Shown here one piece after another: positions 480 to 41,966 of a stretch of 44,569 nt of DNA (positions within the stretch are counted from its first letter, which is position 1; every line of letters begins with the position of its first letter). Source of the DNA: Escherichia phage SECphi4; sequence record MT331608; one strand, 5' to 3'. Under the pieces are notes generated by a model, which did no database searches, had not been told where the DNA came from, and saw only the letters and a list, made by a program, of their open reading frames with translations. A program made the translations under genes and the position numbers.

Positions 480-509
480 ACTATAGTGCAACCAACCTAT
501 TGGTTGCAA
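480..509 (-). promoter_or_regulatory. Sigma70-like promoter (TTGCAA-N18-TATAGT) overlapping an inverted repeat TGCAACCAA/TTGGTTGCA
   Basis: -35 and -10 hexamers about 45 nt upstream of the ATG at 438; architecture recurs at 2384, 15227 and 25833. Confidence 0.45.
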
Positions 510-2383: not shown

Positions 2384-2412
2384 AATATAATGCAACCAAT
2401 CTAACTATGCAA
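2384..2412 (-). promoter_or_regulatory. Sigma70-like promoter (TTGCAT-N17-TATATT) with two direct ATTGGTTGCA copies
   Basis: Motif copies at 2391..2400 and 2408..2417 on the complementary strand, upstream of the gene starting at 2337. Confidence 0.45.
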
Positions 2413-2417
2413 CCAAT

Positions 2418-2741: not shown

Positions 2742-3433
2742 TTTAAATTTTCCTCGTTAACCGCTATCGCGAAGCCGCACGGGGTGAGCGACCTGATTAA
2801 TTTGGTGTGGGCAGATTTGCCTCCGAGGCGACTATACTGCTTCGAGTACCCTTTTTCAACGAAAACAGGTTTCTTCTCTGGCATACGGAAGCCGTTGCCG
2901 GTCCATAAGCAGGTCAGCTTCGGATATGAATCGCGGGCGTTGATGTATTCCGGGAATAGCGGGTGTACGTCATCCTCCGGCAGATATCCGCCATACTCCC
3001 ACGGGTCAAACGAGTGGTCCGGCTTACGCCATTGAGTGGAGAGCACGCTGCGCGGATTCTCAATCATATATGGCACTTCAAAGAAATCACCCAGGTAAGC
3101 GGCGATCTTAGCGGTGCGCACCGCCTTAAGCTGGAAGGCAGGGTCGCGGGCGCGTTTGCGCGGGAAAGCGGGCGCGCCACTCACCGCCAGATCCGTACAC
3201 GGCGGGAATGCGTATATGATATCCGGCGTGCCGAAATCACCATTCATCGCGCGGTCCACGAAGTCCAGACCGATAAACTCATTACGATATCGAATGCCAC
3301 GACCATAGATCCGGTAGTCCAGGTACGACCCGTGATCGGCTCCGGAGTAGTTGAAGCAATAACACTTATGCCCCATCTCGGCAGCACGTTCAATCATCAA
3401 GCCGCTGCCGTCAAATAATGACCAGATAATCAT
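2738..3433 (-). CDS. DNA cytosine-C5 methyltransferase-like protein
   Basis: FDGSG (motif I-like), FPPC (motif IV-like, catalytic Cys) and ENP (motif VI-like) in a 231-aa ORF. Confidence 0.65.
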   Translation of the reverse strand: MIIWSLFDGSGLMIERAAEMGHKCYCFNYSGADHGSYLDYRIYGRGIRYRNEFIGLDFVDRAMNGDFGTPDIIYAFPPCTDLAVSGAPAFPRKRARDPAFQLKAVRTAKIAAYLGDFFEVPYMIENPRSVLSTQWRKPDHSFDPWEYGGYLPEDDVHPLFPEYINARDSYPKLTCLWTGNGFRMPEKKPVFVEKGYSKQYSRLGGKSAHTKLIRSLTPCGFAIAVNEENLK

Positions 3434-5120: not shown

Positions 5121-5294
5121 TTATTTTTGCGCTGCGCGGTAGCGGCGCTGCCGTTCACGCTCTTTCTTATTGCGACACGATTTGCACTCGGCACGATACC
5201 CATCGGGGCTGCGCGCAGTTTTGCCGGTGTATTTGTGGAACTGGGATAGCGGCTTGACGCAACCGCAATTACTGCAACGTTTTTCTTCAATCAT
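5121..5294 (-). CDS. Small zinc-ribbon protein
   Basis: 57-aa ORF with CxxC...CxxC cysteine pairs; GAGGA SD. Confidence 0.45.
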   Translation of the reverse strand: MIEEKRCSNCGCVKPLSQFHKYTGKTARSPDGYRAECKSCRNKKERERQRRYRAAQK

Positions 5295-5334
5295 TTCTAA
5301 AATCCTCGGTATAGCTAACCTGCTCACTATACTG

Positions 5335-5613
5335 TTAAGCGACCAATTCAGCAACCAATAAATCACAGTCAGCTATGTTGTCAATGACGCGAACGTCCGC
5401 ACCGCGGCGGGCCATCCGCTCATGTTCTCGCACCTGGTGCGGCTTCGGTTTGCCTCCGGGGCGCTTCACTTCGACGAAAACTATTCTGCCGTTGATGATG
5501 ATAATCAGATCGGGCGCACCTGCGCGCCCCTCCCAGGCCACTTTGCGGCAGAATCCGCCGACGGCTTTCACCAGTTTCATAAGGTGACTTTGGATCTTGC
5601 CTTCTGGTGTCAT
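5335..5613 (-). CDS. VRR-NUC domain nuclease
   Basis: PDLIIIINGRIVFVEVK PD-(D/E)XK core typical of VRR-NUC; translationally coupled (ATGA overlap) to the upstream gene. Confidence 0.8.
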   Translation of the reverse strand: MTPEGKIQSHLMKLVKAVGGFCRKVAWEGRAGAPDLIIIINGRIVFVEVKRPGGKPKPHQVREHERMARRGADVRVIDNIADCDLLVAELVA

Positions 5614-9048: not shown

Positions 9049-9138
9049 TTTCCAATTCCTCATTTTCACATTTATCGGGGTTATTGGAAGCCACCCCGTT
9101 CGGCTTGGTTGCTAATTTACTTGGTTGCGCCGGAGCGG

Positions 9139-9381
9139 TCAAGCATTTTCATTAAAAAGATTTCTGGTAACGTAGTTGGTCGCGTTCTCGATCCAGCTTA
9201 ACGGCGGTCGGTCGATGTTCTTCTCCACCAAGCCGACGGCAGCGTCGTTATAGCCGTCATCCAGCCAGCGGGTCGGATGTCGAATCATCCAGGCCACCAT
9301 TAATACGCACTGCACACAATGCAGGATAAAGCCCAGCGCGCCGATAACAAACATCAATAAGATTGCGAACACTTTATTCAT
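9139..9381 (-). CDS. Small membrane protein
   Basis: 80-aa ORF with hydrophobic N-terminal helices; GAGGA SD. Confidence 0.5.
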   Translation of the reverse strand: MNKVFAILLMFVIGALGFILHCVQCVLMVAWMIRHPTRWLDDGYNDAAVGLVEKNIDRPPLSWIENATNYVTRNLFNENA

Positions 9382-11798: not shown

Positions 11799-12138
11799 GG
11801 TATATCTCCGATTGGTTAAGTTTAGGTGTCGGCAGTTAACTTCGTCGGTGGCCTTAACATATTGCCAGGTTACGCGTTCTCCCGTTCGGGTAGTGGACCT
11901 GGTTATATAATCACGGTTGGGAATCCTGACACTTCGATCCGGCCCCTGCGTTGCCCCTCTCCAGTTTGCGTCCTGCATCCTGTCGACGAGGTGAATATTA
12001 GATTGGTTGCATGAGGGAGTCAACAACTAATTTAAAAAAAAGCGCCGAAGCAAAATGCGACGGCGCTAACCAATAAGAGACAATGAGACGGGAATTATTA
12101 TTACACGCGTGCGCGCCCGTTTCAATATTCCAGAGGAG

Positions 12139-12167
12139 TTGACACCCTGCGGTTTTAGGTGTAGTTT
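12139..12167 (+). promoter_or_regulatory. Candidate sigma70 promoter for the plus-strand arm (TTGACA-N17-TAGTTT)
   Basis: Perfect -35 hexamer with weak -10, about 35 nt upstream of the ATG at 12199. Confidence 0.3.
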
Positions 12168-12198
12168 CATTGGTCATTAACCAACCGGAGACAGAACA

Positions 12199-12528
12199 AT
12201 GAATATAAACGACGCAATCGAAATGTTAACTAAGACTGTTGGCAGTGAGACTAGCCGGTCCTGGGCCTATACCGATGCCGTGGGGGCTGTATTATTTGAA
12301 ATCGAACGTCTGCGACTTACCGAAAAAGAATTACGCGCGAAGCTGGAATTACTCAACGGTACGGCAGCCAGCAAGCTGCAAAAGCACAATGAGGAAATGG
12401 AAGAATATAAAAAACAGGTTATCCGTTTGCGCGCCGAGGGCAAATCCTGGGCGATGATTGCCGAGTTGACCGGAATTAATCAGAGCACAGTGCGCTCCTG
12501 GGTACGCAATAATAAAACTTCTAAGTAA
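12199..12528 (+). CDS. HTH DNA-binding protein (putative transcriptional regulator)
   Basis: 109 aa; C-terminal SWAMIAELTGINQSTVRSWV helix-turn-helix; GGAG SD. Confidence 0.55.
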   Translation: MNINDAIEMLTKTVGSETSRSWAYTDAVGAVLFEIERLRLTEKELRAKLELLNGTAASKLQKHNEEMEEYKKQVIRLRAEGKSWAMIAELTGINQSTVRSWVRNNKTSK

Positions 12529-14803: not shown

Positions 14804-14884
14804 ATTCTGCGCGCATTGGTTGCCGTTTTGAGTGTTTTTATCCGGTCGTATTGGTTGCCGTGTAGTGTAAATATAATGAATAGT

Positions 14885-15071
14885 TATGCAATAAAACTGC
14901 ATAAAGTAAGCGGGACAAAAAGCGGGACAAACAAGAGGCGGGACAAAGCGGGACAGCACCCCCGTCCCGCCCCGGATGACGCGGCCTGGATAGGAGCGGG
15001 ACAGGCGGGACAAACCCCAGTCTTTCAGACTAGACGGGGGTCAATGGCCCCCCTCGTCTGAGACTGAATAA
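14885..15071. repeat. Iteron element copy A: six or more GCGGGACA direct repeats plus a conserved imperfect palindrome
   Basis: Near-identical to 31562..31740, including a 55-bp identical block cccagtctttcagactagacgggggtcaatggcccccctcgtctgagactgaataa. Confidence 0.85.
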
Positions 15072-15226
15072 AATCCGGGGATTGCAAAATACACGGCAGC
15101 ATAATGCGAAGTGCGGTCGCGGATGAACTAGGCAACCAATGCGATTTGCATTATGCGAAGTGAAAAATGCAGTTTGCAGTTGCAGCAGATAGCGATCAAC
15201 TTTTTCATGCGCGTGATTAATATTGG

Positions 15227-15255
15227 TTGCATTCAACCCGGCGCCTTGCTATATT
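15227..15255 (+). promoter_or_regulatory. Sigma70-like promoter (TTGCAT-N17-TATATT) with ATTGGTTGCA copies at 15222 and 15253
   Basis: Same architecture as the minus-strand promoters; 21-bp block tatattggttgcacaccaaca is shared with the promoter at 25833. Confidence 0.5.
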
Positions 15256-15282
15256 GGTTGCACACCAACATGAGGGCGGAAC

Positions 15283-15794: not shown

Positions 15795-16064
15795 ATGAGC
15801 CGCAGACGGGCGAAACTGCTTTCGTGGCATATTCCACTGCATTGCATACGAATATGGGCTAAGAATGCGACTGAGGGCGATTCTGTATTCTGGTGCTATC
15901 GCGACGACGTTAAGCCGTTGACGCAGACTCGCTACTTGCACCAGTTCGCAGCGCAACACGATTTCAGGGTGCGGACCTCCTTGCAACCAATGGGGATTCG
16001 TATTACATTACGCCGGAAGCCCGCCGTTGAGCGGGTAGGCAAACACTGGAGACTGAGCAAATGA
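15795..16064 (+). CDS. Hypothetical protein
   Basis: 89-aa ORF with AAGGGG SD. Confidence 0.45.
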   Translation: MSRRRAKLLSWHIPLHCIRIWAKNATEGDSVFWCYRDDVKPLTQTRYLHQFAAQHDFRVRTSLQPMGIRITLRRKPAVERVGKHWRLSK

Positions 16065-16213
16065 CACCAATGCAAATAGCACTAATGGCGGGATTCTCGC
16101 AGAAGTTTATTTCAGTAGACGCCTGCATAGATGACTACGAGTATAATGGCGTCGCTACGGTGTGCGATGGCGACACGAAGACTATCGAAGAGATCGAGGA
16201 GACTGAACTATGA
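16061..16213 (+). CDS. Small hypothetical protein (50 aa)
   Basis: ORF bridging two annotated ORFs with ATGA-type overlaps at both ends. Confidence 0.35.
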   Translation: MTPMQIALMAGFSQKFISVDACIDDYEYNGVATVCDGDTKTIEEIEETEL

Positions 16214-17620: not shown

Positions 17621-17862
17621 TTATCTCCGTCCTGTTGTTTGTTATCATCGGGGCTTCGTCCCTGTTTAACGTGTATGCGCCGTCCGTCCAGGATGGCATT
17701 TTAGGCCGGGTGTTATATCTGCTAACGGCGATGATCTGCATTATCGGATTGTTGCAGACAGGAGACGTATCAGATACTACCTGGACCGCGTTAATCTGGC
17801 TGTTTGCATTGCGCACACTGCGTAATGCTGTTTTGAATGGGGTAAAACATGCGATTCAGTGA
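17617..17862 (+). CDS. Second small membrane protein of the lysis cassette (holin or antiholin-like)
   Basis: 81-aa ORF starting at an internal ATG, ATGA-coupled to the holin gene; two TM helices. Confidence 0.55.
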   Translation: MIISVLLFVIIGASSLFNVYAPSVQDGILGRVLYLLTAMICIIGLLQTGDVSDTTWTALIWLFALRTLRNAVLNGVKHAIQ

Positions 17863-18524: not shown

Positions 18525-18532
18525 ACAATCAA

Positions 18533-18556
18533 GCCCGGATAATACCGGGCTTTTTA
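18533..18556 (+). terminator. Rho-independent terminator
   Basis: Stem GCCCGG/CCGGGC with 6-nt loop followed by TTTTTATT. Confidence 0.6.
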
Positions 18557-18619
18557 TTGCTTGACTCGCAACCAACATAGAGGCCATACTGCAACCAATC
18601 AACGAGAGGAGTAATCAAG

Positions 18620-18700
18620 ATGGCACGTAAAGATATTTGGGTATTAGCGATCTGGACCACCGCGGCTTTTATCGGCATGGTTATTTGCGAATTGATATAG
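18620..18700 (+). CDS. Small membrane peptide (26 aa)
   Basis: Strong GAGAGGAG SD 7 nt upstream of the ATG; hydrophobic sequence. Confidence 0.3.
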   Translation: MARKDIWVLAIWTTAAFIGMVICELI

Positions 18701-25037: not shown

Positions 25038-25802
25038 TTAGCGCGGAATACCGCAAATCTCGTTGAGAGTTTTCACATCCAGCGCCACCGCCGTGGATTT
25101 TGGCTTGTCCGGGTAAGGGATGAATTGCTCAACTTCAGGCCATGCCTTAATCAGCTTCTTATCGGTATTGTGCATATCCAGCACACCGGTAACGGTCAAC
25201 TTGAATGCGTCATACTTCGCACGCAATTCGCGGCGGGCCTGGTCGTTACGGTCAAGGCGCTTACAGAAGTCATGATCCGCCGGGAAATCAGCACGGCAGC
25301 GTGGCTTATAGATCGGAAGCGATTTTCCGTCCTCGTCCACTTCACACACCGAAGCCAACATAACTTCCTCGAACCCCGGTACGATATCGCCGAGATCGGG
25401 AGATAGCTTATTCATGTATTTATACTCCCAGTATCCGCGATGTACTCGGTATTGGTGCCCATCGCCGCTCAATGACAAGGTGCGAACGTTACCGCCTGCG
25501 TTGATTTCGAAAGTGGCGTCGTAAACGCTGCCAATACCTTTGGGGCGGTCGGTGTTATAACTATACGTCGCCTTGTTGGTGTATACGCAGACGCCGTACA
25601 TCTGCGACGGGTCATCGTTGATTGCTTCGATGTGTGCGAATAGTTCGGCGAACGTATGAATGCCCCCCGGCATACAGTGCAACGTAATGTCATACGCCAG
25701 GTCGCGCGAGTCCGTCATGATTGATTTGGCTTCGGTAGCGATTTCGTGGTCGCGCAGAATGTTAGCCAGAATCTGGTTTTTAATGTCTTTGGTCAGTCTC
25801 AT
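25038..25802 (-). CDS. Opposite-strand hypothetical protein (254 aa) inserted in the head module
   Basis: ATG at 25800..25802 with GAGGA SD; own promoter upstream and terminator downstream; no recognisable motif. Confidence 0.6.
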   Translation of the reverse strand: MRLTKDIKNQILANILRDHEIATEAKSIMTDSRDLAYDITLHCMPGGIHTFAELFAHIEAINDDPSQMYGVCVYTNKATYSYNTDRPKGIGSVYDATFEINAGGNVRTLSLSGDGHQYRVHRGYWEYKYMNKLSPDLGDIVPGFEEVMLASVCEVDEDGKSLPIYKPRCRADFPADHDFCKRLDRNDQARRELRAKYDAFKLTVTGVLDMHNTDKKLIKAWPEVEQFIPYPDKPKSTAVALDVKTLNEICGIPR

Positions 25803-25832
25803 TTTTGTGTCCTCGTTGTTGGTGTGCAACCA

Positions 25833-40669: not shown

Positions 40670-40972
40670 ATGGCTTTCGGAGTCGAAACATGGGACGAAC
40701 AAGGGCGACCAAACAACTACGGAATCAAACCGGTGTCGGTTGTCGGAATTATTAAACTGGCACAAGGTCAAACATCGGGGGCGTGGGCGTTCGATATTCC
40801 GTCAGGGATGAAAGTAGGTTTTGCGGTTACGCTGGACGTTGGCGGCACTACGGTCGGTAGGGCGATCCGTGCCAGCGGGAACACGATAACAGTGTCCGCG
40901 GCAAACAGCGCCGGTATTGGAAACTACCCGGCGTCAGAATGTGAAGTAGTAGTTTTTGTGGAGAAAGCGTAA
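40670..40972 (+). CDS. Hypothetical tail-associated protein
   Basis: 100-aa ORF with SD, between the J-like and fibre genes. Confidence 0.45.
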   Translation: MAFGVETWDEQGRPNNYGIKPVSVVGIIKLAQGQTSGAWAFDIPSGMKVGFAVTLDVGGTTVGRAIRASGNTITVSAANSAGIGNYPASECEVVVFVEKA

Positions 40973-40974
40973 AA

Positions 40975-41646
40975 ATGGCAAACTTCGGCGCGTTAATCGA
41001 TAACAACAACGGCAACCCATTCGTCACGCCAAACTCAACGCCGTTCGTCCTCTACGCTAAGGTGTCGGCAAATTCAGTGGACGCCGGTGCTGATTATAAA
41101 ACAGCAAGCGGGGGCGTGGATATCCCCTCGAACTATCCGGCAATGGTTTTCATGCGGTCAAACAACCGTTGCGTCCTGGCGGCGTCACGATCAGGTAATC
41201 GGATTATATTTAGCGGAAGCATTCAGGGGCAGAATAACCCACATTTTACCGTCACGGCGTACATATTCGCGCGGTTCCCGCAACCGCTGCCAAAATGGGG
41301 CTTTGCTATTTGGGACGCCAGCGGGACTTGCATACTAACCAACGAAAGCAAGGTGCTCACCGATCTAGTAACTGTCGGCAGCTTCGGTAATAGCGGAGGG
41401 ATTAACATAGACCAGACGCTGCCTGGTAAGTACGCGGTATCACCTATGTTAATGGGCGCTACTCTGATCCAGATCTTTGTACAGGGGCAGCCACAGATTA
41501 TCCAGATCTCGGCGGGGGCAGGGGCTTACGACAACGGAAGCGGCACTCGTATTAACGCAGTCGCTACGCAGGCTGGGTCTGGTAGCATCGCCGGGTATCA
41601 AAACACCGGCGTTGCGCTGACCGCAATTAACGTTGATGGGATATGA
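40975..41646 (+). CDS. Hypothetical tail-associated protein
   Basis: 223-aa Gly/Ser/Asn-rich ORF. Confidence 0.45.
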   Translation: MANFGALIDNNNGNPFVTPNSTPFVLYAKVSANSVDAGADYKTASGGVDIPSNYPAMVFMRSNNRCVLAASRSGNRIIFSGSIQGQNNPHFTVTAYIFARFPQPLPKWGFAIWDASGTCILTNESKVLTDLVTVGSFGNSGGINIDQTLPGKYAVSPMLMGATLIQIFVQGQPQIIQISAGAGAYDNGSGTRINAVATQAGSGSIAGYQNTGVALTAINVDGI

Positions 41647-41670
41647 AAAAGCCCCTTTCGGGGCTTATTT
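41646..41670. terminator. Bidirectional rho-independent terminator between convergent genes
   Basis: Stem AGCCCC/GGGGCT with TTTC loop flanked by an A run and a T run. Confidence 0.6.
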
Positions 41671-41886
41671 GCAGGTTGTGCTTTTGAAGTGGTCAACCGA
41701 CACATACTGGAAGTTGAATGGGTATCCCGCCCGTAACATTTTATGACCGTTAACGTCTGCAACCCCAAACACCGGGACCGAGTATTCCATGCCGCTATTA
41801 ATATATGTCGCGTCGCAGATTTTAGACGGCATATTGGCGCAACCGGACAAAAAAAAAGCCGCACAAATCATAATTAAAGTTTTCAT
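41665..41886 (-). CDS. Small lipoprotein (73 aa), candidate superinfection-exclusion protein
   Basis: Signal peptide MKTLIMICAAFFLSGC with lipobox LSGC; opposite strand to the flanking tail genes. Confidence 0.6.
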   Translation of the reverse strand: MKTLIMICAAFFLSGCANMPSKICDATYINSGMEYSVPVFGVADVNGHKMLRAGYPFNFQYVSVDHFKSTTCK

Positions 41887-41916: not shown

Positions 41917-41945
41917 AGTATCGCACTGCTTAACCATTAATGCAA
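41917..41945 (-). promoter_or_regulatory. Candidate promoter (TTGCAT-N17-GATACT) with an ATTGGTTGCA copy
   Basis: Motif at 41941..41950 on the complementary strand, upstream of the lipoprotein gene. Confidence 0.35.
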
Positions 41946-41966
41946 CCAATTTATGAGGATTTAGCA

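Follow-up and report, generated by a model that had tools for sequence, protein, structure and literature searches.

An asymmetric box in the core of predicted sigma70-type promoters of Escherichia phage SECphi4, a putative docking site for a transcriptional regulator

The C1 operators of phage P1 are copies of an asymmetric 17-bp word that is dispersed over the genome in many copies, lies singly or in pairs over promoters and holds a -35-like TTGC hexamer. The gp71 stoperators of mycobacteriophage L5 have one orientation relative to transcription and block elongation, and the MotA box of T4 and the CII sites of lambda are phage-specific words at -35, placed at a fixed distance from a good -10. 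Here we analyze a word in Escherichia phage SECphi4 (sequence record MT331608), the whole 44,569-nucleotide stretch of which is called the window below. The word, which we call the box, is an asymmetric 9-10-mer of the form (A)TTGGTTGC(A) and, like the P1 C1 and L5 gp71 sites, is present in many intergenic copies genome-wide. Since it is built into the core of almost every predicted promoter of the phage and recurs in the same way in two related genera, the box is very probably a docking site for a regulator of phage transcription.

The window is a complete 44.6-kb Dhillonvirus genome (an HK578/JL1/SO-1-like siphophage of E. coli), to which more than 150 deposited genomes are 91-93% identical. 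Dhillonviruses are abundant E. coli phages, are contained in model collections such as BASEL and serve defense-system and phage-therapy work, and their transcription program is undescribed. Searching the literature, we found no transcriptome or transcription-start data for Dhillonvirus and no description of the box word or of Dhillonvirus promoters, the matches being primers and genome announcements only. No phage RNA polymerase is annotated or was found in the window, and transcription must therefore depend on the host enzyme. Comparison with Rfam gave zero matches in the window.

The box word and its placement in predicted promoters

The exact 10-mer ATTGGTTGCA occurs 11 times on the two strands (at 499, 2391, 2408, 12002, 15222, 15253, 15982, 18590, 25825, 25839 and 41941), against 0.05 expected from 100 dinucleotide shuffles, a 200-fold over-representation. 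The 8-mer core TTGGTTGC is present in 20 copies against approximately 2.3 expected, and GCAACCAA in 20 against 2.3. Using a curated gene list, we found 16 of the 20 cores in non-coding DNA, which makes up 8.4% of the genome (binomial P=2e-14). An earlier note, made from the letters alone, had proposed a motif search with a shuffled control, and the counts are indeed far above chance; the objection that it foresaw, a motif equally frequent in coding DNA, does not apply. Its claim that the word is restricted to intergenic DNA was too strict, as one exact copy (15982-15991, minus strand) lies within the gene at 15795-16064. All positions listed there were correct, and the list had left out the copy at 15982, two variant pairs within promoters (9105/9121 on the plus and 5350/5338 on the minus strand) and a degenerate palindromic site, ATTGGTCATTAACCAAC at 12169-12185, which also lies within a promoter. 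The other variants are found at 487, at 14815, 14850 and 15131 (GCC type) and at 18567 (GCG type). The copies at 499-508 and 5350-5359 overlap the final codons of genes, and the box at 15131 is intergenic only because the coding sequence annotated there in phage JL1 carries three stop codons in this genome.

Paired boxes are arranged as direct, inverted or everted copies with start-to-start distances of 9-35 bp. A classical dyad operator is two-fold symmetric, approximately 14-20 bp long and fixed in its half-site spacing; the box does not fit this description, and only three TTGGT-N5-ACCAA dyads exist in the genome (0.04 expected), in promoters E', F and H. The dimeric regulator suggested in the earlier note is thus unsupported by the asymmetry of the box, by the variable pairing and by the dyad count. 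The flanks of the boxes are unrelated to one another, with the exception of a 21-bp block, TATATTGGTTGCACACCAACA, that was correctly reported to be common to two promoters on opposite strands (15250-15270, plus, and 25817-25837, minus).

We checked eleven predicted promoters base by base (Table 1), requiring a -35-like and a -10-like hexamer at a distance of 16-18 nt, with TAnnnT as the -10. All eleven are of this sigma70 type, and the boxes are placed between approximately -40 and +20 in these promoters at least. They include the four promoters of the architecture TTGCA(A/T)-N17/18-TATA(T/G)T described before (509 to 480, 2412 to 2384 and 25861 to 25832 on the minus strand, 15227 to 15255 on the plus strand), and the promoter geometry supports the view that the box is superimposed on host-type, sigma70-like promoters. 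The gene layout was obtained by mapping the proteins of phage JL1 onto the window: replication and modification genes form a leftward block from approximately 12000 down to 1 that resumes at the right end; a rightward block from 12199 contains genes for a helix-turn-helix (HTH) protein, the helicase-primase, small proteins, lysis, terminase, portal and head; and a short leftward gene at 25802-25038 is followed by rightward structural genes from 25952. According to this map and to terminator-like sites, the predicted promoters lie upstream of, and are co-oriented with, transcription units, and box-bearing promoters head nearly every transcription unit of the genome.

Within the promoters, two main arrangements were seen. 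In promoters B, C, F and I, the -35 hexamer is formed by the 3' half of a box that has the direction of transcription. The -35 is TTGCAA in promoters A, J and H: in A and J this hexamer ends an inverted box, and the two boxes of H run in the direction of transcription and are located past the -35. Most promoters of this first type have a second box that abuts the -10 (TTGGTTGCAN followed directly by TATAnT in A, B and H) or has its start within the -10 (F and H, TATATTGGTTGCA), and the two boxes of promoter A make the everted repeat TGCAACCAA-N4-TTGGTTGCA. Promoters D, E and G have a near-consensus -35 of their own, TTGAC, and carry inverted boxes in the spacer and at +1. In all, approximately a quarter of the copies provide the -35 with their 3' half (TTGCAN), usually exactly 17 nt from TATAnT; counted over four genomes, 15 of 65 boxes provide a -35 hexamer that is separated from a -10-like hexamer by 16-18 nt (background 3.8%), and the good cases all have a 17-nt spacer.

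Judged by these predicted positions, every box occupies DNA that RNA polymerase must cover. The boxes are found in both orientations relative to transcription, and, as we read the sequences, the inverted ones create no divergent promoters. The placements at -35, in the spacer and at -10/+1, together with the two orientations, therefore fit a protein-binding operator and not a pure recognition element of RNA polymerase, and to this extent the operator proposed in the earlier note holds.

Table 1. Predicted promoters, boxes and candidate regulator gene of the window (boxes are described relative to the direction of transcription)
Feature	Position	Strand	Hexamers and spacer	Boxes	Context
Predicted promoter A	480..509	-	TTGCAA-N18-TATAGT	inverted 499-508 (+ strand), its end being the -35; forward 487-496, abutting the -10	upstream of leftmost early genes
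Predicted promoter B	2384..2417	-	TTGCAT (2412-2407)-N17-TATATT (2389-2384)	2408-2417, supplying the -35; 2391-2400, filling the spacer and ending 1 nt before the -10	
Predicted promoter C	5326..5359	-	TTGCTG-N17-TATAGT (5331-5326)	ATTGGTTGCT 5350-5359, giving the -35; degenerate ATTGGTCGCT 5338-5347 in the spacer	3' end of VRR-NUC gene
Predicted promoter D	9104..9142	-	TTGACC-N17-TAAATT	inverted 9105-9113 and 9121-9129 (+ strand), in the spacer and just past the -10	upstream of gp2.5-like SSB gene
Predicted promoter E	11995..12023	-	TTGACT-N17-TAATAT	inverted 12002-12011 (+ strand), in the spacer	leftward early promoter, divergent control region
Predicted promoter E'	12139..12185	+	TTGACA-N17-TAGTTT	degenerate dyad ATTGGTCATTAACCAAC 12169-12185, at approximately +1	upstream of HTH/helicase-primase operon
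Candidate binder gene	12199..12528	+			109-amino acid protein; first gene of rightward early operon
GCC-variant boxes	14812..14859	+		14815-14824 and 14850-14859	left edge of non-coding iteron region
Inverted GCC-variant box	15131..15143	-		13-nt perfect inverted partner (GGCAACCAATGCG) of 14812-14824	
Predicted promoter F	15222..15270	+	TTGCAT-N17-TATATT (15250-15255)	15222-15231, giving the -35; 15253-15262, overlapping -10/+1 and forming a TTGGT-N5-ACCAA dyad	
Predicted internal promoter J	15981..16009	+	TTGCAA-N17-TACATT	inverted exact box 15982-15991, its end being the -35	inside gene 15795-16064
Predicted promoter G	18561..18599	+	TTGACT-N18-CATACT	inverted 18567-18575 (spacer) and 18590-18599 (-10/+1)	after terminator hairpin 18531-18552; upstream of exonuclease/terminase/portal block
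Predicted promoter H	25817..25861	-	TTGCAA-N18-TATATT	25839-25848 in the spacer; 25825-25834 across -10/+1 (TTGGT-N5-ACCAA dyad)	upstream of leftward Nmad5-domain gene
Divergent predicted promoter beside H	25869-25896	+	TTGCGA-N16-TAATAT		faces scaffold gene
Predicted promoter I	41917..41950	-	TTGCAT-N17-GATACT	41941-41950, giving the -35	upstream of 73-codon leftward open reading frame; divergent from tail-fiber gene (41967)

Conservation and the favored mechanism

We take the retention of the box across genera to be the strongest evidence for its function. Edwardsiella phage eiAU-183 (Eiauvirus), the proteins of which are 40-70% identical to those of the window, has 23 cores, and 13 were counted in Klebsiella phage VLCpiS11a, where 1.4 would be expected. 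Orthologous promoters carry boxes in both phages, namely those at the VRR-NUC gene end (the orthologues of promoter C) and those upstream of the SSB gene; eiAU-183 has a further box between the head-morphogenesis and scaffold genes. The same three arrangements recur in the two phages with the orientation and position of the boxes changed. Salmonella phage SP-031 (Cornellvirus) and the Jersey-like contigs L019-L026 and L028 lack the box despite a shared replication module, and no comparable intergenic word was seen in them; a variant word of SP-031, TGTTGGCTG, has too few copies to interpret. Within the genus, invariant columns make up 85% of the box and 75% of other intergenic sequence (Fisher P=0.005). 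The copy at promoter J provides an example inside a gene: its 11 bases TTGCAACCAAT are invariant in 17 distinct relatives and the neighboring codons vary.

The reading that we favor, with no better than even confidence, is that the box is a conserved asymmetric putative protein-binding site in the core of at least eleven sigma70-type promoters and that a trans-acting regulator occludes these promoters. A protein on the box would compete with RNA polymerase for the same DNA, and promoter occlusion would be the most likely mechanism. The regulator would use one box per DNA-binding domain and bridge the two boxes typical of a promoter, and it would damp or shut off transcription by the host polymerase across the phage genome, the promoter of its own operon included. 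Because the boxes lie over the -35, the spacer and -10/+1 and, in the candidate regulator's own operon, downstream of the start, we favor competition with the polymerase, and we infer a negative sign of regulation.

Several observations weigh against this reading. All eleven promoters are predictions. A generic scan requiring nine of 12 hexamer positions is passed by five of them and finds sigma70-like sites no more often than in shuffled sequence, and the promoter calls therefore rest on position, conservation and shared architecture. A simple repressor of early genes would leave the boxes at late-gene promoters (G and H) unexplained, and the strict 17-nt register of the -35-type boxes also fits a positive role. 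The protein described below as candidate regulator belongs to an HTH family confined to Dhillonvirus-like phages: eiAU-183 and VLCpiS11a keep the identical box with no detectable homologue. When the distribution of the box (present in the window, eiAU-183 and VLCpiS11a, absent from SP-031) was compared with that of the non-structural genes, it was matched by no more than two, an adenine methyltransferase and (in domain content only) Nmad5, an HNH protein being common to the window and eiAU-183 only; none of the three is a regulator.

Candidate binders, repeat regions and rival explanations

More tentatively, we infer that the most plausible binder in this phage is the 109-amino acid protein encoded at the start of the rightward early operon, which combines a coiled coil with a C-terminal HTH. 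Its HTH matches HTH_23, HTH_28 and Sigma70_r4_2 (the sigma70 region 4 model with E=2e-6), and it is the only recognized DNA-binding regulator in a Pfam screen that covered 39 small and non-structural products of the window and not every gene. Its AlphaFold2 model (predicted local distance difference test, pLDDT, 88) consists of a 59-residue helix (residues 21-79) followed by a small HTH, and among 22 cluster representatives the C-terminal half including the HTH is nearly invariant and the N terminus varies. Its own promoter, E', carries a box-like site at +1, and in the more divergent relative L153 a full inverted box stands at the position of this dyad. With this build, each subunit would be suited to reading one asymmetric box and the protein to bridging two boxes at variable distance. 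In resolvases, a helix-HTH arrangement reads asymmetric half-sites of approximately 9-12 bp at variable spacing, and the model of the 109-amino acid protein, with its long helix and small C-terminal HTH, is like the accessory-site binding HTH of Sin and gamma-delta resolvase. Unlike serine recombinases, however, the protein has no catalytic domain, and the likeness is one of architecture only (Foldseek match to 2r0q_C with an E-value of 0.7); a structure search (Foldseek) with the HTH model gave generic HTH matches only, all with E>0.6.

As the candidate family is confined to Dhillonvirus and the box is shared by other genera, the binder may come from phage or host. It could be a small protein of the phage that evolves fast, one of its core proteins in which a DNA-binding surface goes unrecognized, or a protein of the host. 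At the locus equivalent to the 109-amino acid gene, eiAU-183 and VLCpiS11a encode a Cro/C1-type HTH protein that is also present in box-free relatives; it was rejected as binder, the recognition helices not co-varying with box presence. In phylogenetic profiling, neither the 109-amino acid HTH nor the Cro/C1-type HTH, eiAU gp54 or a Lar-like zinc-ribbon protein tracked the box. A 50-amino acid product at 16061-16213 (plus strand) begins with 18 residues (MTPMQIALMAGFSQKFIS) resembling the Cro/C1-type HTH of eiAU gp29 (pairwise E=8e-6), the remainder being acidic; the likeness was judged too weak for a binder, and the product has no Pfam hit. That one factor, a core replication or host protein and not a recognizable regulator, reads the 9-mer in all three genera is in our view distinctly unlikely. 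If true, a single factor would act at the origin-like repeat regions and at essentially all promoters, giving small virulent siphophages that depend on host RNA polymerase a DnaA-like initiator/regulator logic or a sigma-appropriation-like device.

The repeat regions consist of an element of approximately 180 bp with two copies of like orientation. The copy at 14890-15070 is part of the non-coding stretch 14804-15282, downstream of the helicase-primase gene, and the copy at 31565-31740 is part of the non-coding stretch 31419-31802, ahead of the tape-measure gene. Both have a long conserved hairpin (CAGTCTTTCAGACTAGACGGGGGTCAATGGCCCCCCTCGTCTGAGACTG) and approximately six iterons of the type GCGGGACA, which number 14 in the genome where 1.6 would be expected. 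Their counterparts in the record of Sodalis phage SO-1 (NC_013600.1) are annotated as "repeat regions B and A". We consider the two elements candidate replication origins, in an arrangement like the ori/crr pair of phage P4. The place of an iteron cluster, defined as at least three repeats beside an initiator or helicase gene together with an AT-rich or structured region, is taken in the window by GCGGGACA, with the box in the flanks only, and in eiAU-183 by the box itself. Gene gp15 annotated in JL1 (114 amino acids) has three in-frame stops at the corresponding positions of the window, 14876-15217, where it overlaps the iteron region, and this is probably no gene.

Among the alternatives, positive control would make the box the recognition element of a phage promoter class, a surrogate -35 at which either sigma70 reads TTGCAN with TTGG adding affinity or a factor at -40 to -31 recruits or re-targets the polymerase in the manner of the T4 MotA box or the lambda CII sites, with extra copies fine-tuning activity. 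We regard this as rather unlikely. It would account well for the 9-10 promoters in three genera that have the form TTGGTTGCA(N)-N17-TATAGT/TATATT with a spacer of exactly 17 nt and for -35 hexamers, TTGCAT and TTGCAA, that match the consensus at only three to four of six positions; the box at 14850-14859 covers the -35 region of a perfect TATAAT (14872-14877) with no recognizable -35, and the candidate protein has its match to sigma70 region 4. However, 50 of the 65 boxes are outside the -35 register, second copies cover -10/+1, and inverted boxes lie inside the spacers of TTGAC promoters (D, E and G, VLCpiS11a 11392 and L153) with no divergent promoters. Moreover, eiAU-183 has eleven copies in a promoter-poor non-coding stretch, and no member of the MotA or AsiA families, which diverge fast, was matched among the 39 screened products of the window. 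Of similar, low probability is a host protein conserved among Enterobacterales that couples phage promoters to host physiology. The identical 9-mer in phages of Escherichia, Sodalis, Edwardsiella and Klebsiella that have no detectable shared phage regulator speaks for such a binder, and the CytR repressor would be an example: CytR half-sites, GTTGCATT or TTGCAA, are direct or inverted with spacers from zero to approximately three helical turns (PMC3454398), a relaxed spacing and orientation resembling the loose pairing of the boxes. The half-site overlaps the 3' part of the box, with six of its eight positions within the box, and three of the 12 exact TTGGTTGCA copies continue as GTTGCATT. In contrast to the CytR operators (PMC3454398), however, the box is conserved best in (A)TTGG, which is not part of the octamer, and only weakly at the two bases that would make the octamer complete; tandem CRP sites, a requirement of natural operators, were not noticed in the box flanks, although no search was aimed at them. 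The related Salmonella phages (SP-031 and L019-L026) are box-free even though the same host factors are available to them. A search for paired boxes in bacterial genomes was uninformative, with scattered, taxonomically unrelated taxa among the matches listed.

A role mainly in replication or DNA organization, with the box as an iteron-like site for an initiator or bridging protein and its presence in promoters secondary (serving, e.g., transcription-coupled origin firing or looping), appears more doubtful still. In its favor, eiAU-183 has approximately eleven copies within the 900 bp of non-coding DNA that follow the helicase-primase gene and another five to six ahead of the tape-measure gene, the positions of SO-1 repeat regions B and A; in the window, the iteron region is bracketed by three GCC-variant boxes, two of which form a 13-nt perfect inverted repeat 306 nt apart. 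Against this, the origin-like regions of Dhillonvirus carry a different iteron, GCGGGACA, region A has no box and most boxes of the window are found singly or in pairs at promoters across the whole genome. Dense irregular TTGGTTGCA clusters in the unrelated viral contigs L126 (6313-6626) and L110 (9039-9259), beside primase-helicase genes (VapE-like and DUF3987), could be added to this, but these contigs came out of a search of 2.9 million contigs for the word itself, and coincidence is likely. The same holds for a third cluster, in L050 (2754-3174), a contig with no protein detectably shared with the window, and we rejected the three as a link to primase-helicases. In L126, the boxes form 10-bp tandem pairs around an A-rich stretch and the DNA polymerase is closest to those of Firmicutes phages; the primase-helicase of L110 has weak matches only (human fecal contigs and a Streptococcus phage). 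A scan of viral contigs for paired boxes was likewise uninformative, with mostly coding tandem repeats and unrelated contigs among the matches listed. That the box has no function of its own and is a by-product of duplicated promoter cassettes, recombination linkers or compositional bias seems extremely improbable. Two promoters do have the 21-bp block in common, and the duplicated region 14890-15070/31565-31740 shows that duplication occurs in this genome; yet the box flanks are otherwise unrelated, the over-representation of the word is 200-fold, orthologous promoters of genera with proteins only 40-70% identical have kept it in changed orientation and position, and it is invariant inside a gene whose adjacent codons vary. 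A sigma54 reading and a DnaA-box reading were both rejected by comparison with the consensus sequences.

Neighboring features and comparison with known systems

Near the promoters, we made some further observations. A terminator-like hairpin with a T-run (GAAGGGAACGCCCTTT TTTAAT) at 2358-2373 on the minus strand begins only approximately 4 nt past the start predicted for promoter B; a leaky terminator of the upstream operon, an attenuator and a 5' stabilizing hairpin are all possible readings. Directly downstream of promoter C, the Lar-like product of 57 amino acids (5121-5294, minus strand) has a CxxC...CxxC zinc ribbon and a very basic tail, and is 64% identical to an unannotated open reading frame of eiAU-183 (17637-17786) and 49% identical to one of SP-031 (2937-3074). 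Just downstream of promoter G, an unannotated 26-codon open reading frame (MARKDIWVLAIWTTAAFIGMVICELI; 18620-18700, plus strand) with a strong GAGGAG ribosome-binding site lies on the strand opposite to the small coding sequence annotated there in JL1 (gp04). The gene that promoter H is predicted to drive (25038-25802, minus strand) encodes a 254-amino acid Nmad5 (nucleotide-modification-associated) protein; JL1 has short unrelated open reading frames at this position, and at other positions an Nmad5 domain is found in eiAU-183 gp32 and a 27%-identical tblastn match in the gp16 region of VLCpiS11a. Downstream of promoter I, a probable 73-codon gene (41665-41886, minus strand, with its ATG at 41886) takes the position of the JL1 lipoprotein gene with no detectable similarity to it, and the cassette at 40670-41646 also differs from JL1.

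Two observations concern other words and genes. The most over-represented words of the window are the 8-mers ACGGCAGC, ACGGCAAC and CGCTGCCG (30 against 3 expected), which lie mostly on the coding strand of the rightward block and are also top-ranked in the distant relatives L019-L028, L150 and L151; their excess could be due to codon or peptide bias or to an oriented signal. The VLCpiS11a product gp33 (L151 19078-19326), annotated as hypothetical, matches the Tad2-like domain of Thoeris anti-defense (E=1e-24).

A single word that marks nearly every promoter provides a ready map of the transcription units of these phages. The box could also serve as bait in a pull-down of the regulator and as an engineering handle, e.g., for tuning or insulating inserted genes. 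A puzzle is posed by the identical word in Eiauvirus and in a Klebsiella phage that share no recognizable regulator.

A related annotation concerns the repeat regions: repeat region B of SO-1 corresponds to 14804-15282 of the window and holds five boxes, and that annotation covers the repeat-rich regions as wholes, not a dispersed promoter box. Like the MotA and CII sites, the box is a phage word that occurs in the -35 region, at a fixed distance from the -10, in a set of promoters; unlike the T4 MotA box, only about a quarter of the copies are in this register (15 of 65 boxes), the rest being placed in spacers, at +1 or inverted. Like the L5 stoperators, the boxes are short asymmetric sites, approximately 20-30 in number, in small intergenic spaces, with one class overlapping a promoter as an operator; unlike them, the boxes are of mixed orientation and nearly all lie within core promoters. 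The likeness to the P1 C1 operators extends to asymmetry, dispersal, single or paired placement over promoters and an included -35-like TTGC hexamer. P1 is, however, a temperate phage with a known immunity repressor and the box word is only 9-10 bp long; a temperate lifestyle or immunity of the P1 and L5 kind was not recognized among the annotated or scanned genes, with neither an integrase nor an immunity repressor among those of the window, JL1, SO-1 and eiAU-183, a subset of which was scanned. In kind, the box resembles the known dispersed asymmetric operator and promoter words of phages, and is neither a classical dyad nor a MotA box of fixed position.

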